Assembly: GCA_963843645.1 (NCBI GenBank)
Contig: CAWJLE010000002.1
Location: 189,909-253,908 of the forward strand
From: an uncultured Chloroflexia bacterium
GTDB taxonomy: Bacteria > Chloroflexota > Anaerolineae > DAOTYC01
Length of the DNA: 64,000 bases
Reading direction: 5' to 3'
Shown: piece by piece, positions 7,801 through 53,490 of the stretch
Position numbering within the stretch: the first letter of the stretch is position 1
Layout: the number at the start of each line of letters is the position of its first letter
Notes under the pieces: generated by a model
What the model was told of the DNA's origin: nothing
Seen by the model: only the letters and a program-made list of their open reading frames with translations
The model's database searches: none
Program-made: the position numbers and the translations under genes

Positions 7801-8030
7801 GACGTGTTCGGCAAAGAGGGACGAGGTACTACCACTTCTGGAGACTGGCGGCGTCTCCGGGAACGAGCACTGTGTGGTCACGATCGTGTCTCCAGAAGCC
7901 CCGCGCATGGGGATAAAGCTTCATCGAATACCAACAGAAGTCGGTGAAGCAAAGAAGGTCCGACGAATTGGCCCGGGAATCGCCATCGTGCAAACAACAT
8001 GCCGAGTCTGACTTTCTCTACGGGAGGGGG

Positions 8031-8723
8031 ATGCAAGCCAGAATGGACAACGAACGCCTGACACAGAAGAAACAGCAGCGCTATGATTTCCTCAAGAAGC
8101 TCTACGATAAGACGGACGGAAAAGATCTTGTTCCCGTAAACTTCGACGGGTTCGCGGAAGAACTGGGTTTGAACAAAGAAGCCACACGTGACGTCATCCA
8201 GTACCTAAAGGGTGAAGGCTTAGTGAGGCAGCACACCCAAGAACTGGTGAGCATTACGCACGCGGGAGTTCTCGAGGTCGAGGAGACGATGGAGCATCCA
8301 GATAGGCCGACGTCCCATTTTCCGCCCGGTGTCAACATCCTGCATATCGAGACCGTGAAAGACTCGCAAATACAACAGGGGACCTTCGCCTCGTCGCCCC
8401 AAATCCAATTCCGTGATGACGAGATATCAAGAGCCTTTGCCAGCCTATTACAACAGGTTGAGTCGTTGGCAGAAGGACCAGACAAGCGTGACGCCAAACA
8501 TGCGGTGGAGATGCTTGAAGAAGAGGCACGCAAAGGCACACACGCTCATGAAGGAACCGTGCGGAGGTGGCTCAATTTCCTTCTCGAAACTGCCCCAGCC
8601 GCCGGGGAAGTCGCGGTGACCACCTTCATCAATCCAATTGCCGGAGTGGCTAAAGTATTCCAGAAGGTAGCAGAGAAGGCGAAACAGGAAAGAGAACAAG
8701 GCGCCCATCATGGCCCGAACTGA
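8031..8723 (+). CDS. winged-helix (wHTH) DNA-binding protein with uncharacterised C-terminal domain; first gene of the low-GC island
   Basis: ATG after GGGAGGGGG RBS. N-terminus (KKLYDKTDGKDLVPVNFDGFAEELGLNKEATRDVIQYLKGEGLV) is a typical wHTH. GC ~50% vs ~68% in flanks. Confidence 0.65.
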   Translation: MQARMDNERLTQKKQQRYDFLKKLYDKTDGKDLVPVNFDGFAEELGLNKEATRDVIQYLKGEGLVRQHTQELVSITHAGVLEVEETMEHPDRPTSHFPPGVNILHIETVKDSQIQQGTFASSPQIQFRDDEISRAFASLLQQVESLAEGPDKRDAKHAVEMLEEEARKGTHAHEGTVRRWLNFLLETAPAAGEVAVTTFINPIAGVAKVFQKVAEKAKQEREQGAHHGPN

Positions 8724-8771
8724 GCATCCTGCGAAGAACCTCGCCACTGGAAACCTCAGCGGAGGCGACAG

Positions 8772-9719
8772 ATGAGCGACAAGCAGAACGATGATATCCT
8801 GCAGTCCACGACGCCCAAACCTTTTGTGTTCGTCTTGATGCCCTTTGATCGGTCATTTGACGACATTTACAAGTTCGGAATTAAGGGCGCAGCGGAGCAA
8901 GTTGGAGCCTATGCAGAGCGGGTAGACGAGCAGATCTTCACTGAAGGTATTCTCGACAGGATCTTCAGCGAGATCAACAAGGCTGATGTAGTGGTTGCAG
9001 ATATGACAGGGCGAAATCCCAACGTGTTCTACGAGGTCGGCTATGCCCACGCTCTGGGCAAGATCGTGCTGCTGGTGACAAGAGACGCCAACGACATTCC
9101 CTTTGATCTTCAGCACCAACAGCACACGGTCTATGGCGGGAGCATCGACACATTGAAGAGCGAGCTGGCTAGAAAGCTGCGCTGGGCAATTACCAATCCG
9201 AAGGCAAGATCAGCCGACGTCGTCGTCACTCTGCAGTTCTCGCGACTCGATTCACGCCCGCCCAAAGCGTATATACTTGAGGTGCATATAGCGAATGATG
9301 GGCTTGAGACCATAGAACGCTTCAGTCTGCAGATTGAAGCCCCGCACTATCAACCCAGTAGGGAACCAAAGAATGTCCGTACAGCCGATCTGAGTCTTAG
9401 AGACCATGCTCTTGACCGCTGTGAGACTGAGTTTCTCTCGTTCCCAGACTCGACAAGGACGTCTTTGAAAATGACTTATTGGTCTCCGCATCCTCTCCTG
9501 CCTGGGCAGCGGATCTCGTTAACCAGCAAATTCCGCTACGGACTCGAGTTCCGTGGATTCGACAAGGCCCAGGTCCTCGAGTGGTTCAGAGTCACGTCAA
9601 GCCTAGACAACTCCAAGTTGTCTTGGTCTCTCTATTGTGATCGCCGACCTTCCACAAACGGGCAGCTTTCACTTTCCGAACTATTCGAGGCCGAGCCGTC
9701 GACCTCGGTGTGGCTCTAG
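8772..9719 (+). CDS. nucleoside 2-deoxyribosyltransferase-like / TIR-like (SLOG-superfamily) N-glycosidase-motif protein with unknown ~170-aa C-terminal domain
   Basis: FVFVLMPFD…ADVVVADMTGRNPNVFYEVGYAHALGKIVLLV matches the NDT/DNPH1-type motif (β1-Asp; catalytic Glu in the E-x-G-Y-A motif). GGAGG RBS. Low GC. Confidence 0.65.
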   Translation: MSDKQNDDILQSTTPKPFVFVLMPFDRSFDDIYKFGIKGAAEQVGAYAERVDEQIFTEGILDRIFSEINKADVVVADMTGRNPNVFYEVGYAHALGKIVLLVTRDANDIPFDLQHQQHTVYGGSIDTLKSELARKLRWAITNPKARSADVVVTLQFSRLDSRPPKAYILEVHIANDGLETIERFSLQIEAPHYQPSREPKNVRTADLSLRDHALDRCETEFLSFPDSTRTSLKMTYWSPHPLLPGQRISLTSKFRYGLEFRGFDKAQVLEWFRVTSSLDNSKLSWSLYCDRRPSTNGQLSLSELFEAEPSTSVWL

Positions 9720-10037
9720 TGCGCCCTCATGGGTTCTCGGATCCCGCCTTCGCCATGGCTGTTTCGACGACGTGATCACATTAACCTGATGTGGCCGACT
9801 CATGACATGGGCTCGACTTGTGGATCGCTCAGATGTCGCAGATGTGTGTGAATCCGTGGTGCCGCAACTGGGGCGAAGCAAGCAGAAAAGACGTGTCCTC
9901 GCGGTGCAGCGCAGCCGCGCCTAGAGCTGAGGCCGGGGCAATTGTTGCCGTTTCGAGCGGACAGTGTTCCTGAACGAGGGCCAGTCTCAGTGTCGCCGGA
10001 CGATGCCCGCCACGCCAGCCCGAAAGGGAGATAAGCC

Positions 10038-10988
10038 ATGACAGACTGCGATGCCCCGCCCAACTCGTATGATCGATTTTATGAGCACAATCGCGACACC
10101 TTTGGAGAGTACATGCCAAAGGAAAAGCTGATGGATGCTCTCTACTATCATTTTCTTCCATCTCAATTCGCGATAGATGATCTTGCAAAGCAGAGGATCA
10201 AGGTTAGTACAATAGACACTCTTAATGACCCGTTTGAAATGAACCCCTATATGCGATGCGATGACGACATAAGGCCGGAGTATCGCGAGGAGCGCAGCAG
10301 AATTTGTGACAATTACGGTCTCTTGTGTTTTTGCCATGACTGGCGCGAAACGCTTCTGTGGTCGTACTATGCCGACAAGCACAGAGGCATTGCAATAGGC
10401 TTTGATATTCCATCGGATGACGTGATAGAAGTTTGCTACACCCTCAACCCGACAAGGCAACGAGTTGAGCTGACGGATAACCCAAGAGAGGTCGAGAAGC
10501 AATTCCTAGATTTGGCCAAGGTCAAGTACGGAGAGTGGATGCACGAGAGAGAAGCCAGAGTACTAGTCGAACGGAAAGACTGGAAGGATGAACCAGTTGA
10601 CAAGTGTGGGAAGCAGGCCCTTTACCGCTTCCGCCATTTTGACAATAGGCTACAAGTGAAGGCTATAGTGTTGGGCTGTAGGTTTCCCTATTCGAAAGCA
10701 TGGGAGGACATACTGCGAGAAGCCAAGAAGCTGGAGGCTTGGATTGTTCCTACACGAGAGGCCTGGGAAGGCTACAAGATACGTCTACGCAACCGCAAGG
10801 CCAAACCCGGCACATCAGAGTGTCCGTCCGGCAGTCCATCGGCGTCTGGATCCCCCAGTTCTAGCGCCTCCCCGTCGGAGTGTACGTTTCTCAGTCCGTC
10901 GGCCTCTCCATCTGCCGGTCCCAGCGCCTCCCCGTCTGCGTCCGCATCTCCCAGTCTCAGTGCGGATGAAGATATGCCAAACGATTGA
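10038..10988 (+). CDS. DUF2971-family protein with C-terminal Ser/Pro-rich low-complexity tail
   Basis: Signature motifs LNDPFE and LLCFCHDWRETLLWSYYADKHRGIAIGF match the DUF2971 hallmarks (NDPxE; MWshYAd.hkG). Tail PSGSPSASGSPSSSASPS… is encoded by imperfect ~60-nt repeats. Confidence 0.75.
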   Translation: MTDCDAPPNSYDRFYEHNRDTFGEYMPKEKLMDALYYHFLPSQFAIDDLAKQRIKVSTIDTLNDPFEMNPYMRCDDDIRPEYREERSRICDNYGLLCFCHDWRETLLWSYYADKHRGIAIGFDIPSDDVIEVCYTLNPTRQRVELTDNPREVEKQFLDLAKVKYGEWMHEREARVLVERKDWKDEPVDKCGKQALYRFRHFDNRLQVKAIVLGCRFPYSKAWEDILREAKKLEAWIVPTREAWEGYKIRLRNRKAKPGTSECPSGSPSASGSPSSSASPSECTFLSPSASPSAGPSASPSASASPSLSADEDMPND

Positions 10989-34495: not shown

Positions 34496-35101
34496 TTACT
34501 GGCTCTGCAGCTTGCCGCCGCCCCGGTTGATGTTGGGCATGGCTCCGCCGCCGCCCGGCGCGAAGCGGGCTGACTCACAGACGAGCTGGAACTTCTCCCA
34601 GGTGTTGACGTGCGTCGCATCCGAGTGCATGGTCTCCGGGACTTCCGTGCCGTGGCCGCCGCCTCCGGTCGCGGTCAGGTAGTGCCCGTTCACCGTCTTG
34701 ATGTCGTACCACCCATACCCCAGGGATTCGAATACGAACTGCTCCCAGGCGTTCGGCTGAGTCGCATCGGAGTGAATGACGTCGGAGATGCGCCCGCCGC
34801 CGTCCACCGCGGTGAGGTAGTGCCCGTTGGCGGTCTTGATGCCGTACGTGATGACCGGCGTCCCCAGATCCAGGTCCTCCAGCGTGAACTTCTCCCAGCT
34901 TCTGGCTTGTGTCGCGTTCGTGTGGATGACGTCTTTGATCCGCCCTCCGCCGCCGACTGCGGTGAGGAAGTGCCCGTTGTAGGTCTGGATCGCGCAGACG
35001 ACGGGCCCGTTTTTGGCGGAAACAGTAGCGGCCGGGACGACGACAGCGCCCAGCATAACGGCGATCAGCAGCAACGAACCGGTTACCCAAAACGTTTTCA
35101 T
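34496..35101 (-). CDS. secreted β-trefoil protein with three (N/R)xWE(K/Q)F repeats (ricin-B/fascin-like)
   Basis: Signal peptide. Three ~45-aa repeats NGH(Y/F)LTAV.GGGRI.DVIH.(D/N)AT..N.WE.F resemble a QxW trefoil. Confidence 0.55.
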   Translation of the reverse strand: MKTFWVTGSLLLIAVMLGAVVVPAATVSAKNGPVVCAIQTYNGHFLTAVGGGGRIKDVIHTNATQARSWEKFTLEDLDLGTPVITYGIKTANGHYLTAVDGGGRISDVIHSDATQPNAWEQFVFESLGYGWYDIKTVNGHYLTATGGGGHGTEVPETMHSDATHVNTWEKFQLVCESARFAPGGGGAMPNINRGGGKLQSQ

Positions 35102-35319
35102 GGTTCGAGATCCTCCAAATGCGGCTGCCCCTGCTCTTTCGGTCGCTGATGGTCCTCAGAATAATGAAGCACCCGCGGTGACTATGGCCGACTATACCGG
35201 AAGAACGCTAAATCCCGACGCCTGCGCTGAGTGTTGTTATATTCGCACATAAATAGAGTGTACGTGAAGAGCTCCGGGGAGTGTATGATGCAGGTCATGA
35301 GGTGGCGGGCTGGCGGGGT

Positions 35320-35931
35320 TCATTCACACAGCTCTCGCAGGCCGCGCACAAACACCTGGAAGCTCTTCGACTGGTTCCGATCCGGGTTCATGTGCGGGGC
35401 GATCCGCCGGGCAGCGGAAATCTTGGCGAGGCCGCTGCGATGATACCCGGCCCGTTGGAGTTCCCGCTCCAGGGCGTCACTCGTCTTGCCGGCGATCTGA
35501 TCGGAGTTGCGGTATTTTGCCCGCCTTGCCAGGTTGACCGGAACTCCGGGGTAGGCAGCGTGCAGGGCTTCCACATCTCCAAAGAACCAGGCCTCCAGCT
35601 CCTTGACCGCCAGCCGGTTCAAGACCTGAACGTGCGAGCTGAACAGAGAGGTCGACCGGGTCGCCAACCGCGCGCGGTGCGCCATTTCTTCCAACGATGC
35701 CTTCAAATCACGGCAATCGCCCTCGTCCGCGTCGAGCAGGACCACGATCCGCCAATCGTCAGGCAGCCAGTTGTGATATGCTCTGAGGAGCCCCGGCAGC
35801 TTCGAGAGGAGGTCGTCCTTGCCCTGATGGGGGTGGATGGCGAACGTGACGGCCGCTCCCACGACCTTGGGCACCAGTATCTGCAGCGCTGCTTCAGACG
35901 AGGACTCTTCCACCAAGAATTCGATGTGCAT
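35320..35931 (-). CDS. DUF4276-family protein (Toprim-like; partner of the upstream AAA_21 ATPase)
   Basis: MHIEFLVEESSSEA…IVVLLDADEGDC…LEAWFFGD carry the conserved E…E, D-x-D and E-A-W motifs recalled for DUF4276. Lower GC (~60%). Confidence 0.7.
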   Translation of the reverse strand: MHIEFLVEESSSEAALQILVPKVVGAAVTFAIHPHQGKDDLLSKLPGLLRAYHNWLPDDWRIVVLLDADEGDCRDLKASLEEMAHRARLATRSTSLFSSHVQVLNRLAVKELEAWFFGDVEALHAAYPGVPVNLARRAKYRNSDQIAGKTSDALERELQRAGYHRSGLAKISAARRIAPHMNPDRNQSKSFQVFVRGLRELCE

Positions 35932-35951
35932 CGGGGCCGTCTTCCTTGGGC

Positions 35952-37178
35952 TCAGTGTTGTGGAATCTTCAGACCACCGGAAGCGGTCAGCGGGTCGCCG
36001 GCGTCGAAGAACCCGCTCATCCAGAGGTTCCCCAGCAGATTGCCCTGGGCCATGAATTCCCTGATGCCTCTCATATCGGCGGCCCGGCGGGCCTGCGTGT
36101 AGCCTCGTTCATCCCGGTAGAGCACCCACAGCTCCTCGGGCTTGAGTCCGTTCACGAAGAAGGGCGAGTGCGTGGTCACCATCAACTGACTGCGGCCCGA
36201 CGCTTCGCGGCATTCCTCGGCCAACTCCGGCAGCAAACGAGGATGAAGGTGGTTTTCCGGTTCCTCTATGCCGATCAGTTGGGGCGGGTCCGGATCGTAC
36301 AGCACCGTGAGGTACGAGAGCATCTTCAGCGTACCATCGGACGCGAATCTGGCCAGAATGGGGCGCTCAAACGGCGCGTCCTTGATCTGCAGCAACAGCC
36401 GGCCATCGGCCATAAGCTCCGCGTCTACCTTCTCCAGCCGCGGTACACGCTCTGACAGTGCCTGGAGAATCTGGGTCAACCGATCCTCGTGTTGCTCTTT
36501 GAGATACTGGATGACGTTCGGCAGGTTGTCCCCGGTGGCCGATAGGCGTTCCTGAGGTCCGGCCTCGGGCACCGCCCGCGCGTTGTCGGCGGTGAGGTAG
36601 GAGAGATACCACCCCGTGATGAAGCGGCGAAGAGCGCTGACGCGTGGGTTCCTGGCCAGTTGGCCCAGTGTGTTCACGGCAAGCATCTCGGACGAGTCCA
36701 GGGTCTCCGACATGCGCTGATCTGTGGCGTCCGGCACCTCGCCACTCACTACCATGCCGCTGCCCATCTGGAAGTCGACGAACCTGAAGGGCCGGCCCCA
36801 CTGCCCGCGTCGCCACTGCAGCCATTCTTCGGTGACGAAGGGGCCCCTCGAACCCTCATCGATGGCCAGATGGTAGGTGATGAGCGGTGATTCGCGCGTC
36901 TCGCGGTATTTCAGCTCGATGACGATGGGACCGTCCGATCCGCGGGTGCGTAGCTCTTTGAACCGTCCGCGGCGGTCCCAGGCCTTGCGCAGGCCGACGG
37001 AAAAGCACTCCGCGAGGAATGCGAACACGTCGAAGAGCGTCGACTTGCCGCTCCCGTTGGGACCGAGCAGAACGGTCAATGGGGTCAGTCCCTTCAGTTG
37101 AAGGTCCCGGAGAGCCCGATAGTTCCTGACCGCCAACGCTTCGATGCGCGGGATGGAGGGCCTGTTGTAGCTGCTCAT
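35952..37178 (-). CDS. AAA_21/ABC-type ATPase (OLD-family-like N-terminal ATPase)
   Basis: Walker [18 protein letters not shown] signature and Walker B/H-loop region …[14 protein letters not shown]…. Stop 20 nt before the DUF4276 start. Confidence 0.85.
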
Positions 37179-37348
37179 CGCTCACCTGGTTCCCCGAGTC
37201 CGTCACGGACTCTCGGCGTGGGAAGCCCCCATCGTCAGAGGGGGCTCATTCGCACATGACATATGAATGGGCGAATTATACCACACAATCGCGAAACGTC
37301 TACGGACCTTGCCCTGCCCGAAGCCCATTCGGCTTCCCGAGCGGGCCG

Positions 37349-38675
37349 CTACGTGGACGAAAGTCCGGGGACAGGGGCGGCGCCCTGACTCCGGTCCGGC
37401 TCCGATTCCAGGGCGCGGATCTTGCCGACGCGCCCGATGATGACCGCCAGGATGGACACGAACAGGCCCGACAGGATGAACATCAGGCCGATGCCCCTGC
37501 CCGGGCCGGTGCCGATCATGCGCCCGACGCTCTGGCCCAGCACACCGTTCGGCAGGAGCGCCGGGTTGAACAGGCGGTCCGCCAGGAACCCGGCCGAGGC
37601 AAACGCCAGTATGTAGCCGATCTGCGAAATGGCGGACACCAGCGACCAGGCCCGGCCCTGGCGTTCGTTGTCGACGTTCCGGCGGATGAGCACCTCCAGG
37701 CTCGTGTTCGCGAACGGCAGCGTGGCAAAGAACAGGAAGCCGAAGACGATGATCCACTTGACTGACGTGAACAGGCCCATGCAGGCATAGCACAGGCCGG
37801 CCAGCGCGAGGAACAGCGAGAGCATGAATACCTTGTTGCCCTTCATGCCGAGCACGCCGATGAACAGGCTGCTGACCATCATCCCTGATGCCGATGCGGA
37901 CAGGGCCACGCCTAACGTCTGTGAGTTGGCGAGGGTCAGCATCATGGGACCGTACAGCGATTGCAGCAATCCGATGTAGAAGCAGAGCACGGAGGTCAAC
38001 ACCACCAGCCACAACACTCCTTGCTGCGCCGTGAGGTAGCGGAAGGAATCGCGCATATCGTGGAAGAACGTCTGTGTCTCGTGCTTCTGGGGAGCGGCAT
38101 ACGGCGTCCCGATCAGCAAAACCGCGGCTACCGCGATCAGGAAGGTGGCGATGTCGATCGCCAGGACCCACTTCACGTCGTACACGCTCATCAGCAACCC
38201 GGCGACGATCGGGGAGATGGAGATACTGCGCCGATCCCGCCAGCTGAATCAGGCCGCTGGCCTGGGAGTACAGCTCTTCGGAAACCAGATCGGTGACGGC
38301 GGCCTTGTAGGCGGGGCTCTGAATTGCTGCGAACACCGCGCTCATGGCCACGCCGACGTAGATGTGCCACACTTCCAGGCGCCCCGACCCCATGGCCAGC
38401 AGGATGAACAGCAGTCCGCTGATGGCGCCCGCGTCCCCTACGATCATCATCTTCCGGCGATCGAAGCGGTCGGCCAGCACTCCGGCAAACGGCAGCAGGA
38501 CGAACGTCGGCAGAAACGCGAACAGAATCACCAGGGAGTAGCTCGTGGCCGACTGGGTCTTCTGAAAGACGAAGACCCCCAGGGCGAACGCGGTGAGCCC
38601 GCTGCCGATGGCTGAGATCAGCTGTCCCAGCCAGACGACGAGAAATCTCTTGAAGGTTCGATCTGGAGTGTTCAA
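37349..38675 (-). pseudogene. MFS transporter (EntS/macrolide-efflux-like), frameshift near 38215; TTG start overlapping upstream stop (TTGA)
   Basis: N-terminal half (…VWLGQLISAIGSGLTAFALGVFVFQ…LADRFDRRKMMIVGD…) and C-terminal half (ORF 37349..38197) are in different frames. Confidence 0.65.
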
Positions 38676-39538
38676 CTCTGCATTGCTCCTTCGGTCGCGA
38701 CGGACCGCGCGGGGGCCGATTCGACTTCCGGCTGCGCCTCGAAGAACGCCCGGTCGTAGATCACGATGCCGGCGGCCACGATCAGCAGCAGCGCGGTCTG
38801 GATGAATTTCGTCGATTCCACCGTGGCGAACGCTTCCGCCGAGATCACGGTCATGAAGTGCAGCAATATGGCGGCCGGGATGCTGCGGTGGTTCCGGTAA
38901 TAGACCCAGTTCAGGATGAACGCCATGGGTAGGATGCTGAGGAAGAAGTTGACGACGTAGGGGCCGCCCATCTTCCACAGCTCGTTGTGGTAGTAGTTGT
39001 TGATGAAGAACAGCGGCACGTGCCATGCCCCCCACAGAACGGCGAACAGGACGCTCGTCTTCAGCAGCGTGAATCTCTGGCGCAGGCTGTCGACGCCGTA
39101 ACCCCGCCACCCGATTTCCTCGAAGGTTGGGGCCAGAATCGAGATCAGCAGGCTGGCGAGGACCTGCCCGCCCACGATGTCGAACTGATCGGACAGCGAG
39201 AACTGCGCCGGGGATGCGCCGAACAGCAGGGAGACGGCGATCGCCGCCAGGACCGACGCCGGCATCAGCAGTACGATGACCGGTACGTATCGCAGGTCGA
39301 TCCGCCGGATCTGGGTGAGCCTGCTCCAGAAGTCGGACTTCAGGTCGCGGCTGCCGGACCCGAAAACCATGAACAGGCCGATGACCATCGGCGCGATCAA
39401 GCCGGGGATCAGCAATAGGAACTCGATGGACTCCATGCCGGCGCGATGGCTGAAATAGGCGGCGGCGAACCAGGACGCCCAGGTCAACAACAAGGTCGAA
39501 GCGAAGAATTTCGTGGGTTTGTACGCATGGCGACTCAT
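38672..39538 (-). CDS. CPBP-family intramembrane metalloprotease (CAAX protease/Abi domain)
   Basis: …APTFEEIGWRGY…FAVLWGAWH… motifs. Confidence 0.85.
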   Translation of the reverse strand: MSRHAYKPTKFFASTLLLTWASWFAAAYFSHRAGMESIEFLLLIPGLIAPMVIGLFMVFGSGSRDLKSDFWSRLTQIRRIDLRYVPVIVLLMPASVLAAIAVSLLFGASPAQFSLSDQFDIVGGQVLASLLISILAPTFEEIGWRGYGVDSLRQRFTLLKTSVLFAVLWGAWHVPLFFINNYYHNELWKMGGPYVVNFFLSILPMAFILNWVYYRNHRSIPAAILLHFMTVISAEAFATVESTKFIQTALLLIVAAGIVIYDRAFFEAQPEVESAPARSVATEGAMQS

Positions 39539-40543: not shown

Positions 40544-41671
40544 TCAGGCGTAGAGCCAATCTTCCTCTGAGGAAACCGGCAAGTCGTCGCAAGCGCGGGC
40601 GTGAAGCCAACCCAAGGCTCCAAGATCTCGAATTGCTGTCGCGACCGTCTTTTCGTCCAGAGGCGGTGTTCGCCGTTGCTTCCATTGCATAACTTCCGCA
40701 AGTACCTCACACTCGGTCGGCTGTGTGTCTCTGGCCGCCCGTAGCGCGCGGGCCGTGAACAGCACGGTGGCGGTCACCTCGGCCTGCTGCGTGTCCATCC
40801 GCAGGAACAAGTCAGCCACTCTGTTCAGAATAGATTCCCATTGTTGCAGATGCTCGGCGTAGGACTGGCGAGCATCGGAAAAGGTCGGTCCGACGTTGAC
40901 GGCGAACATTTGACCGAGACGAGATTCGACGATTAGCCCGTTGTTTACTAATCTTGTGACAACTCCCTTGAGCGCAGGAGCGAACGGGCCATAGCTGCTC
41001 CGCTTATACTCGAGCCCGGTAGGAATTCCCTCTTGTGTCGCCACATAGGCGATCTTCTGGAAGGTGGTTCGACCTACCGGCCAGTGGTACGGTTGCTCTT
41101 CGATGCGCCGAAGAATGTCGACGAGAGCCACCAGCCCCGCATGCACCCAGCGCGGCTCCGGCATGCTGACCCCATTGGCATCAGGCGTCTCCCGAGCCAG
41201 GAAAGCCGGCTGCAACTCCTCGTGTGGGGTACCGTAAGGGGCATACAGCTCTATCGGAATCTCCAGGCGACTGAAGCGGCGATACAGCGTCGGTCCCACG
41301 ATGCGCCACTCAAGCTGACCCTCGCCACAGCCGAGTGGCGGAACCGCCAACGAACTGATGCCCCAGGCCTGGTAGTTTTCGAGGAGGTAGTCGACGCCTT
41401 GCACGATGCTGTCCAATCGAGCAACTGACCGCCAATGGTCCTTCGTTGGGAAATTCAATACCCAGGGAAAGACGAGACGCTTGTATAGATAGGGGCGGCC
41501 GAGTCGGACTTCGCGCCGCTGGCAACGGCGAACGTAATCTGCGAACATCTCTGGAAAGCGGGTTTTGAACCCTAACGCGATGCCCTTGCCCATTACACCG
41601 ACGCAGTTCACCGTATTCACCCAGGTTTGGGCATTGGATTCGAACATGTCGCCAATCAAAACCTTTATCAT
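40544..41671 (-). CDS. darG: DarG-like antitoxin (N-terminal macrodomain + C-terminal DarT-binding domain)
   Basis: MIKVLIGDMFESNAQTWVNTVNCVGVMGKGIALGFKTRFPEMF… macrodomain. 375 aa. Immediately downstream of the DarT-like gene. Confidence 0.75.
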   Translation of the reverse strand: MIKVLIGDMFESNAQTWVNTVNCVGVMGKGIALGFKTRFPEMFADYVRRCQRREVRLGRPYLYKRLVFPWVLNFPTKDHWRSVARLDSIVQGVDYLLENYQAWGISSLAVPPLGCGEGQLEWRIVGPTLYRRFSRLEIPIELYAPYGTPHEELQPAFLARETPDANGVSMPEPRWVHAGLVALVDILRRIEEQPYHWPVGRTTFQKIAYVATQEGIPTGLEYKRSSYGPFAPALKGVVTRLVNNGLIVESRLGQMFAVNVGPTFSDARQSYAEHLQQWESILNRVADLFLRMDTQQAEVTATVLFTARALRAARDTQPTECEVLAEVMQWKQRRTPPLDEKTVATAIRDLGALGWLHARACDDLPVSSEEDWLYA

Positions 41672-41688
41672 GGCGTACCCTCCTGTGT

Positions 41689-42279
41689 CTAGCGGAAGAA
41701 TAGAACCGCATTCACTGCTACGTCCAGGGTCGGTGCCAGTTCGTTCAGACTCAATCGAGCCTCTTCACAAGACACGTAGGCGCCCAGGATGTGATGGGGC
41801 GGTACCCGATTAGGGACCAACACCTCAGCACATTTAATCCGCTTCTTCCGCCACTGCTCAATCTGATTGGCGTCCGTCCAGTATGTGGCGAAAACCAGTG
41901 TCTCGTCAACTTCGCTGAGTCCGTAAGGAGATGGGAGGAAGCGCGTATAATTGCTGGCAGCGTTCCCATCTGTGATCACTACCCCAGACAAATCGAGGAT
42001 CGCCTGGCTGACCCGCAACACGCACAATTCCATATGAGAATCCCTGCGTTTGTAAATCATCGGGTTCCTGGCGCAGAGGTACAGATTCACGTATGTGTGG
42101 AGAGGTCGGCCACCAGGTACTGTTTTTCTCGTTCGTATTTCCTGAACCTCAGGCATTGCAACTGAAATTGGTCCCATCGGCTTAGCTCTCTGGTATGAAA
42201 GGATGCCGTGGATCAGGATCGAAGGGACGTTAGCGATGTTGGTTATGTAGTGCAATTCAGGGAGATCTGACCTATTCAT
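41689..42279 (-). CDS. darT: DarT-like toxin (DUF4433 ssDNA ADP-ribosyltransferase)
   Basis: LHYITNIANVPSILIHGILSY… matches the DarT N-terminal hallmark (YHxTHxxNLxSIL). 196 aa. GC ~52-55%. Confidence 0.75.
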   Translation of the reverse strand: MNRSDLPELHYITNIANVPSILIHGILSYQRAKPMGPISVAMPEVQEIRTRKTVPGGRPLHTYVNLYLCARNPMIYKRRDSHMELCVLRVSQAILDLSGVVITDGNAASNYTRFLPSPYGLSEVDETLVFATYWTDANQIEQWRKKRIKCAEVLVPNRVPPHHILGAYVSCEEARLSLNELAPTLDVAVNAVLFFR

Positions 42280-51764: not shown

Positions 51765-53490
51765 AGCCGGCCCCCCGGACTTCTGTCATTCTGAGCTGCA
51801 ATATGGTCCGCGGCGGACCACTGATTGGGCAAGAAACAGACTCGCGGGCGGTGAGGTGTATGTGTATAATGGGGGGCGAGTTCAGACAGTTAAGACCGGC
51901 GCCTCATTGGTGCGCACGAGCCCGTCTCTGAGCTTGGTTCCGACTATTAGTGACTCATTGATTGGTGGCGTAGACCCCGGTTAGTAGCATTCCGAGTTCG
52001 TACGAGATAGTCGGGTCTGGACTCTGTGCAGCGAGATATTTAACCTAGAGTAGAGGTGAGTCCATGAGTCAGAAGACCAGTCGTCGCCCCCGCGTGGCGC
52101 CCGCCCCCGTGTTGGAACAGTTGAATCTCGATGCCGCCGGGCTAGATATCGGCGCCAGCGAGATCTACGCCTGTGTGCCGGGGGACCGGACCGACCAGCC
52201 GATTCGGGTGTTTCGCACGTATACGGCCAGCCTGCATGAGTTAGCCGATTGGCTGGCCCAATGTGGGATCAAAACCGTGGCGATGGAATCGACGGGCGTG
52301 TATTGGATCGCGGTGTACAACATCTTGGAAGCGCGTGGCTTCGAAGTCTATCTGGTCAATGCCCGCCACCTCAAGAACGTGCCAGGGCGCAAGTCGGATG
52401 TATCGGATTGCGAGTGGTTGCAGCAACTGCACAGTCACGGCTTGTTGCGGGCCTCGTTTCAGCCACCGGCCGAGATCTGTGCGTTGCGGACCCTGGCGCG
52501 CCAGCGCGAGAGCCTTATCAAGTCGCAGGCGAGCCATATTCAGCACATGCAGAAAGCGTTGCAAGTGATGAACGTCAAACTGAGCGAGGTCGTGTCGGAC
52601 ATCACGGGCCTGACCGGGCAGCGCATCATCCGGGCCATCCTGGCGGGCGAGCACGAGCCCGGCCGCTTGGCGCAGTTGCGTGACCCGAAGTGTGCCAAGA
52701 GCGAGGCGGAGTTCGCCCTGGCGCTGGCCGGCACCTACCAGTCCGAGCAGGTGTTCGTCCTGCAGCAAGCTGTGGCGCAATACGATTTCTTCCAGGGCCA
52801 ACTCCAGGAGTGTGATGCGCAACTGGAGGCCGTGTACGCCCAACTGCCACCGGCCACGCCGGGCGCCAACTGCCCGCCCCCAGCGGCCCGAACGACCAAA
52901 CGGCGCAAAAACCAAGCTCACTTTGATCTGTCGGGCCACCTGTATCAGCTGACCGGCGTGGACCTGACGGCCATTGATGGCCTGGGGGCCTTAACCGTCC
53001 ACACGATCATCTCCGAAGTGGGGGTCGACCTGACCAAATGGGAGACGGCCAAACACTTCACGTCCTGGCTCGGCCTGGCGCCGTGTCCGGAGAAATCGGC
53101 CGGCCAGGTCCTCCATACGGGCACCAAGAAGACCGACAACCGGGCCAATCAGGCCTTCCGCCTGGCCGCGCAGAGTGTGAGCCGCAGCCAGTCGTCGATC
53201 GGGGCCTGTTACCGCCGCTGGCGCGCCCGCTTTGGTGCCGCCGAAGCCATCACTGCCACGGCCCACAAATTGGCCCGCATCTTTTACAAACTGCTCAAGG
53301 ATCACGTGCCCTACAAGGATCCGGGCCCAGACGACTACGACCGCAAACACCGGGCCCGCACCATTCGCAACTTGGAACGCAAGGCCAGCGCCGTGGGTAT
53401 GCGCGTGGTACCGATCGACATACCTCTTGTTTCTTAGTAGGAGCGCCGTTCAGCGACGAAGAATGACAGAAGTCCGGGGGGCCGGCTCGC
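51765..53490 (+). mobile_element. IS110-family insertion sequence with short terminal inverted repeats
   Basis: GCCGGCCCCCCGGACTTCTGTCATTC at 51768 and its reverse complement GAATGACAGAAGTCCGGGGGGCCGGC at 53458 bracket the transposase gene. Confidence 0.75.
52064..53437 (+). CDS. IS110-family transposase
   Basis: N-terminal DEDD-type motif LDIGASEIYACV. C-terminal Transposase_20 motif …FTSWLGLAPCPEKSAGQV…. Confidence 0.9.
   Translation: MSQKTSRRPRVAPAPVLEQLNLDAAGLDIGASEIYACVPGDRTDQPIRVFRTYTASLHELADWLAQCGIKTVAMESTGVYWIAVYNILEARGFEVYLVNARHLKNVPGRKSDVSDCEWLQQLHSHGLLRASFQPPAEICALRTLARQRESLIKSQASHIQHMQKALQVMNVKLSEVVSDITGLTGQRIIRAILAGEHEPGRLAQLRDPKCAKSEAEFALALAGTYQSEQVFVLQQAVAQYDFFQGQLQECDAQLEAVYAQLPPATPGANCPPPAARTTKRRKNQAHFDLSGHLYQLTGVDLTAIDGLGALTVHTIISEVGVDLTKWETAKHFTSWLGLAPCPEKSAGQVLHTGTKKTDNRANQAFRLAAQSVSRSQSSIGACYRRWRARFGAAEAITATAHKLARIFYKLLKDHVPYKDPGPDDYDRKHRARTIRNLERKASAVGMRVVPIDIPLVS

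Follow-up and report, generated by a model that had tools for sequence, protein, structure and literature searches.

Does a pair of adjacent genes encoding an ABC-type ATPase and a small DUF4276 protein constitute a defence system of its own, and, if so, of which kind? The pair lies in a 64,000-nucleotide stretch of DNA from an uncultured Chloroflexia bacterium (NCBI GenBank assembly GCA_963843645.1, contig CAWJLE010000002.1, positions 189,909 to 253,908 of the forward strand), hereafter called the window. An earlier note on this DNA had described it as a split, OLD-like combination of an ATPase with a Toprim-like protein and as a likely mobile defence module. Profile searches assign the pair to HEC-01, i.e., to a kind of module that is already catalogued and not new, and standard defence-finder tools would label the locus accordingly. 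HEC-01 (Hma-embedded candidate 01; PADLOC-DB v2) was defined by Payne et al. as an ABC ATPase together with a TOPRIM protein; it was found embedded in Hma systems and has a metal-binding site in common with Burkholderia OLD (10.1101/2024.01.29.577857). The window copy is probably a self-contained two-gene module of the HEC-01 type directed against phages or other mobile elements.

Identity of the two genes

The pair consists of two co-oriented open reading frames (ORFs) on the minus strand, found exactly where the earlier note had placed them. The upstream one encodes 408 amino acids at 35952-37178(-) and the downstream one 203 amino acids at 35320-35931(-), with a spacing of 20 nucleotides (nt) and the ATPase stop codon between them. 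Based on the ORF and on Pfam and PADLOC matches, the first product (HEC-01A) is assigned as an ABC-type (SMC/Rad50/OLD-like) ATPase which presumably acts as sensor and regulator, while the second (HEC-01B) belongs to DUF4276, has a Toprim-like fold and is presumably the metal-dependent nuclease effector. Judged by sequence, every feature of HEC-01 is present, namely matches to both profiles, adjacency and co-orientation, and the two proteins are the same as in HEC-01, occur in the same order and match both profiles over their full length. The check by PADLOC that had been proposed for the locus returned HEC-01A and HEC-01B, and together with the literature this supports the split, OLD-like ATPase-Toprim architecture and its likely role in defence.

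For the 408-residue protein, Pfam reports AAA_21 (2.5e-31) and AAA_15 (8e-19), and the PADLOC profile HEC-01A (PDLC04182) matches with 6.4e-171 and 566.8 bits, aligning residues 10-395 with profile positions 2-404 of 406. All other named ATPase profiles in PADLOC, including AriA, mad3, AbiLi and PtuA, score far weaker. The Walker A motif and ABC signature claimed earlier are indeed part of a full ABC motif set. Walker A, or P-loop, reads GPNGSGKST (residues 39-47; 37038..37064(-)) directly in the sequence; it is unchanged in 38 homologues and reaches a conservation of 95% or more across 72 genomic copies. The ABC signature motif SDGTLK (residues 280-285; 36324..36341(-)), the Walker B/D-loop segment LIGIEEPE (residues 301-308; 36255..36278(-)) and the H-loop TTHSP (residues 335-339; 36162..36176(-)) were located from the sequence in combination with homologue conservation and are invariant, too. 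By these motifs, the first gene encodes an ABC-family (SMC/Rad50/OLD-like) ATPase in which the nucleotide-binding motifs are all intact. Variation among the ATPases is clustered at residues 1-10, 81-160 and 231-260 as well as in the C-terminal 40 residues.

The AlphaFold2 model of the ATPase is poor (pLDDT, or predicted local distance difference test, of 58) and backs only an SMC/Rad50/OLD-like ABC head. Nearest folds to this low-confidence model are the heads of SMC, RecN and Rad50, followed by retron Eco8 OLD, PtuA, OLD, GajA and AriA; a sequence search of the PDB gave only weak matches to PtuA, OLD and Rad50. Two further ATPase copies were noted in passing. At locus L084, from a metagenome-assembled genome of Phycisphaerae, only ATPase residues 171-404 are detectable (9251-9952), located 5' of an intact DUF4276 gene, and this ATPase may be a decaying copy. 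Locus L001 (51-1310), from a short-read assembly, is apparently the same locus as that in the window; here, a 419-residue ATPase was called, and its N-terminal stretch of ~36 residues fails to align with the window protein.

The assignment of the 203-residue protein to DUF4276 is likewise borne out by profile search, as Pfam matches it with 8.1e-27 over nearly the whole profile (positions 1-191 of 192), this being its sole Pfam match at E ≤ 0.01. The PADLOC profile HEC-01B (PDLC04202) gives 1.1e-86, covering residues 1-202 and profile positions 1-201 of 204. An AlphaFold model built from 39 homologues (pLDDT 86.5; predicted template modelling score 0.84) displays an alpha/beta core of the order beta1 (2-7), alpha1, beta2 (29-34), alpha2, beta3 (60-65) and alpha3. 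The acidic motifs pointed out earlier are real and fall at telling places in this model. E8-E9 (35905..35910(-)) is located at the end of strand beta-1, modelled at residues 2-7, which is the position of the Toprim catalytic glutamate. D67-A-D69 (35725..35733(-)), followed by a further glutamate, directly succeeds strand beta-3, corresponding to the metal-binding DxD motif of Toprim proteins. A second acidic cluster, E111-L-E113-A-W115 (35587..35601(-)), belongs to the most conserved block, with a mean conservation of 0.96 for residues 111-120. All three motifs are invariant among the 39 aligned homologues. In the model, HEC-01B is therefore predicted to be a Toprim fold with an intact acidic constellation, comprising a glutamate that follows beta-1, a DxD that follows beta-3 and one more invariant motif, E-x-E. 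This predicted fold and residue placement agree with the published description of DUF4276 and RloB together as new members of the Toprim superfamily (PMC12065111). No DUF4276 relatives were found in the PDB by sequence search, and the proposed link of the protein to AriB and TOPRIM_OLD rests on the predicted fold.

Comparison with known ATPase-Toprim systems

Several characterised systems combine comparable components, and identity with each of them was considered. MADS is a multi-gene, methylation-based system. Like HEC-01, it possesses an AAA_15/21-type ATPase and a DUF4276 Toprim protein, and the alignment with the mad3 profile extends over the entire window ATPase (PADLOC 7e-25; NCBIfam 1e-32). 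With 113.7 bits, however, the match is well below the MAD3 equivalog cut-off of 420 (NF047739). Moreover, no other MADS genes adjoin the pair: a PADLOC search of ten neighbours returned DarT and DarG only, and a weak mad2 match (1.5e-10) falls on a generic S-adenosylmethionine methyltransferase 7 kilobases (kb) away. Due to the ATPase score below the MAD3 cut-off and the lack of adjacent MADS genes, MADS was rejected. PARIS comprises the ABC ATPase AriA and the DUF4435 Toprim tRNase AriB. Whereas AriB is a DUF4435 protein of about 300 amino acids, the window nuclease has 203, belongs to DUF4276 and gives no match to the AriB profile. AriA models match the window ATPase partially, along stretches 228-343 and 298-342 (2.4e-31 and 1.1e-21), far below HEC-01A. 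In the PARIS literature, the sensor pores of AriA are reported to be poorly conserved and variable, in contrast to the highly conserved HEC-01 ATPase, and PARIS is often encoded by phages or satellites, while HEC-01 rarely occurs in viruses. As neither a DUF4435 nor an AriB match was obtained, PARIS was rejected, too.

OLD-family nucleases (classes 1 and 2, GajA among them) have in common with the window HEC-01B a Toprim fold with a catalytic glutamate and a DxD motif. Their ATPase and Toprim domains, however, are fused in one polypeptide, while the window carries two separate genes. Pfam gave no match to TOPRIM_OLD (PF20469), and there is no GajB-like helicase partner. The split genes and the missing TOPRIM_OLD match led to rejection of this identity. 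AbiL or RloA-RloB and those Menshen NsnC variants that carry DUF4276 also pair an ATPase with a small partner of the Toprim superfamily, often within type I restriction-modification (R-M) loci. An AbiLi profile weakly matches the window ATPase (5.5e-24), but the partner here is DUF4276 and not RloB (PF13707). No RloB or AbiLii match was found, so that AbiL/RloAB was rejected, and there are no NsnA or NsnB genes with the pair. In the literature, the group of ABC ATPase plus TOPRIM systems includes MADS3-4 and AbiL (PMC11464382). Mad4 (DUF4276) is named among the components of the defence system MADS in PMC12065111, and this paper as well as PMC11464382 credit the MAD3 ATPase and the MAD4 DUF4276 protein to Maestri et al. 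2024. By analogy, the pair in the window would work like members of this ABC ATPase plus Toprim group.

Distribution and genomic surroundings

To what extent the two genes belong together can be judged from other genomes. For the close subfamily, one genome per species was scanned in 185,579 species, giving 456 loci (~0.25% of the species-representative genomes). Detectable relatives number ~2,000 for the DUF4276 protein and more than 8,000 for the ATPase. Neighbourhoods were compared for the best 80 of the 456 loci, 78 of which were testable, i.e., had upstream DNA present. In all 78 testable species-representative genomes, the ATPase gene lies directly upstream on the same strand; the two genes are thus strictly co-inherited as an operon in the order ATPase, then nuclease. 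The testable genomes come from over 12 bacterial phyla as well as from methanogenic archaea. The best 80 loci are spread over Chloroflexota, Desulfobacterota/Thermodesulfobacteriota, Nitrospirota, Cyanobacteria, Planctomycetota, Acidobacteriota, Elusimicrobia, WOR-3, Poribacteria, Bacillota, Zixibacteria and archaea of the Methanothrix/Methanosarcinales. Such patchy inheritance is consistent with horizontal transfer. Matches were obtained in only 10 of 72,556 plasmid records and in 2 of 2.9 million viral contigs, hence the module is mostly chromosomal. With these two viral matches, and with the DUF4276 protein belonging to no PHROG family, phage carriage was rejected.

Among the loci compared, no third gene is conserved beside the pair. 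The commonest immediate neighbours are the type I restriction gene HsdR downstream (8/71) and an N6 methylase upstream (3/69), followed by TIR, Schlafen/AlbA, SEFIR, Macro and other AAA_21 proteins, each observed once or twice, and the remaining neighbours are heterogeneous metabolic genes. Type I R-M genes (HsdM or HsdR) flank about 10 of the 78 loci (~13%; tblastn). One homologous locus has an Hma-like context with PLD-SNF2 helicase, Eco57I-type methylase and ATPase, and another lies within a type I R-M island. On a Meiothermus taiwanensis plasmid (L167), the gene order is hsdM, DUF262, hsdS, DarT, DarG, ATPase, DUF4276 and hsdR, while on pSYSM of Synechocystis PCC 6803 the pair occurs among toxin-antitoxin and Dnd-related genes. 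Overall, the pair is scattered over many phyla and often adjoins restriction or other defence genes.

In the window, the same-strand gene order is DarT, DarG, TetR, a CPBP/Rce1-like protease, a major facilitator superfamily (MFS) transporter, HEC-01A, HEC-01B and a small secreted repeat protein. Since this order shows no enclosing restriction or Hma system, the pair is here, unlike the founding examples of HEC-01, stand-alone in a loose defence neighbourhood and not embedded in another system. The complete DarT-DarG pair (40544-42279(-)) lies 3.4 kb upstream of the ATPase gene and consists of DarT at 41689-42279(-) (Pfam 2e-36, PADLOC 1.7e-39) and the macro protein DarG at 40544-41671(-) (PADLOC 4.8e-85). 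Just as in the window, DarT is located directly upstream in 77 of 80 close DarG relatives. At two other loci, L002 (8747-11776) and L007 (7436-10473), the order is HEC-01A, HEC-01B and a DarG-like gene, with no DarT within 10 kb, and on the L167 plasmid (4019-7627) DarT, DarG, HEC-01A and HEC-01B follow one another inside the type I R-M locus. Starting from the DarG side, HEC-01 was found within 6 kb of none of the 80 close DarG relatives. A general functional link between HEC-01 and DarG was rejected on this ground, and their adjacency is read as co-localisation in a defence island.

The idea of a mobile module fares unevenly. While the patchy phylogenetic distribution speaks for it, no local hallmark does: no direct or inverted repeats framing the pair were found in the flanks, the 64-kb window contains no tRNA genes, and the nearest transposase, of the IS110 family, is 15 kb off. 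The claim that the pair has a guanine-plus-cytosine (GC) content of ~60% compared to ~68% in its neighbours did not hold. The pair has 62.7% GC, the window mean is 63.8% (standard deviation 3.5% for windows of the same size), which places the pair at the 33rd percentile; the 5-kb flanks have 65.3% and 60.5%, and only a neighbouring ORF of 397 amino acids attains 68%. A GC island at the pair was therefore rejected, the true low-GC patches being DarTG, with 52-58% the lowest-GC patch of the neighbourhood, and the region at 8-12 kb.

Some further features of the window may be described briefly. A consensus scan across 34900-37600 yielded a single promoter-like match, a putative site TAGACG-16 nt-TATAAT with TG extension at 37275..37302(-), ~97 nt 5' of the ATPase start codon, which is a match to the consensus only. 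The MFS transporter gene directly 5' of the ATPase gene (37349-38720(-)) is split over two frames near 38200, with its N-terminal half in one frame and a 282-residue C-terminal half in another; either the gene is a frameshift pseudogene or the split is due to a sequencing error. The downstream neighbour (34496-35101(-)) encodes 201 amino acids with an N-terminal signal-like segment and only a weak DUF7910 match. It contains three internal repeats of ~150 nt with DNA identities of 66-76%, each with a motif of the type GGGG/R-I-x-D-V-I-H. No mobile-element gene other than the IS110-family transposase (DEDD_Tnp_IS110 and Transposase_20; 52064-53437(+)) was seen in the window. Nowhere in the window is GC lower than at 8-12 kb (~53.5%), and this stretch harbours three proteins of conflict or defence-island type within 7944-10988(+), namely a TCAD2 domain protein (7944-8723), a nucleoside 2-deoxyribosyltransferase-like protein (8772-9719) and one matching DUF2971 weakly (10038-10988). 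Possibly, these genes form another defence locus of unclassified type.

Function of the pair and its alternatives

How would such a module work? Analogies can be drawn from papers on PARIS, OLD and Gabija (PMC11464382, PMC12409363), and, as in OLD, Gabija and above all PARIS AriA/AriB, an oligomer of the ATPase would hold or gate the nuclease and act as the sensor. Upon an infection cue, ATP binding or hydrolysis would then release or activate the Toprim nuclease. The latter would cleave nucleic acid by two-metal catalysis, the target being either invading or host DNA, as for OLD and GajA, or tRNA, as for AriB. Cleavage would block phage replication, possibly at the expense of the infected cell.

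Several points weigh against a self-contained defence module of this kind. In the founding study, HEC-01 protected against none of the phages tested (10.1101/2024.01.29.577857). For a cold-seep representative, protection of E. coli B from one or more of T7, T5 and T4 is reported, but the available excerpt of this single positive report gives neither magnitude nor mutants (PMC12881386). With one negative and one positive assay report, the functional data on the HEC-01 family are in conflict. No AriB or TOPRIM_OLD profile match was obtained for the DUF4276 protein in Pfam, PADLOC or PDB sequence searches. The pair in the window is embedded in neither a restriction nor an Hma system, and neither its GC content nor any repeats mark it as recently acquired. 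Finally, for a phage sensor the ATPase shows an unusual degree of conservation. From bacteria through archaea it exceeds its nuclease partner, with a mean pairwise identity of 73% compared to 59% for the nuclease (72-81 genomic copies, L005-L084, including bacteria vs Methanothrix archaea).

One alternative regards the pair as accessory to restriction-modification, similar to RloA/RloB and active only when partnered by type I R-M or Hma, in which case the window copy would be an orphan of little or no activity of its own. The HsdR gene directly downstream in 8 of 71 loci, the presence of HsdM or HsdR within about 10 of 78 loci and the Meiothermus plasmid, where the pair is inserted between hsdS and hsdR, all point this way, as does the discovery of HEC-01 within Hma systems and its lack of protection when tested alone (10.1101/2024.01.29.577857). 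On the other hand, ~87% of the loci have no restriction genes in their flanks, no third gene is conserved beside the pair, the catalytic motifs of the window copy are all intact, and one HEC-01 tested alone was reported to be protective (PMC12881386). Taken together, dependence on a restriction partner is unlikely. A patchy occurrence across domains of life combined with very high sequence conservation would also suit a selfish addiction module of the toxin-antitoxin type, kept because loss of the ATPase unleashes the nuclease and having no primary role in defence. Plasmid copies among toxin-antitoxin genes and the Pfam label of AAA_21 as 'putative AbiEii toxin, type IV TA' could be quoted in its favour. 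That label, though, is historical, the protein being a full ABC ATPase; furthermore, those characterised ATPase-plus-Toprim systems that come closest are defence systems, and the pair is mostly chromosomal, judging from its counts in plasmid records (10 of 72,556) and viral contigs (2 of 2.9 million). An addiction module is accordingly rated improbable.

Least probable is a housekeeping system of DNA repair or recombination analogous to RecF-RecR or SbcCD, where an SMC-like ATPase works with a Toprim or nuclease partner; this hardly fits a pair present in only ~0.25% of species-representative genomes scattered over unrelated phyla, with no conserved genomic context among the loci and with defence-system models as its strongest profile matches throughout. 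A DUF4276 assignment without support from profiles, or a conserved housekeeping context across the phylum, had been named earlier as grounds for giving up the defence reading. Both fall away, because DUF4276 was confirmed and the pair is patchy across phyla with heterogeneous flanks, revealing no conserved housekeeping context. A self-contained two-gene defence module of the HEC-01 type is the preferred reading.

With this locus, a catalogued candidate defence system gains a further example, which any PADLOC run would label. In terms of genome annotation, the pair and DarTG 3.4 kb away mark a small defence neighbourhood. The interest is general rather than local, since HEC-01 occurs in abundance among environmental bacteria and archaea, and assays of it are contradictory; it derives only from the question of the mechanism of the HEC-01 family. 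For biochemical work on this question, a copy that stands alone, is well conserved and has its motifs intact would be a sensible choice. An ATPase identity of ~73% across phyla and archaea, above that of the nuclease, is not as expected for a sensor of fast-evolving phage proteins (cf. PARIS). As a tentative and rather doubtful extension, HEC-01 might represent a mechanistically distinct ABC-ATPase/Toprim branch, in which the ATPase senses a universal, invariant cue and then licenses a minimal nuclease of 200 amino acids. Nucleic-acid structure, free DNA ends or damaged tRNA could be such cues. If true, sensing of an invariant cue would explain both the portability of HEC-01 across domains of life and the inconsistent results of the assays in E. 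coli.

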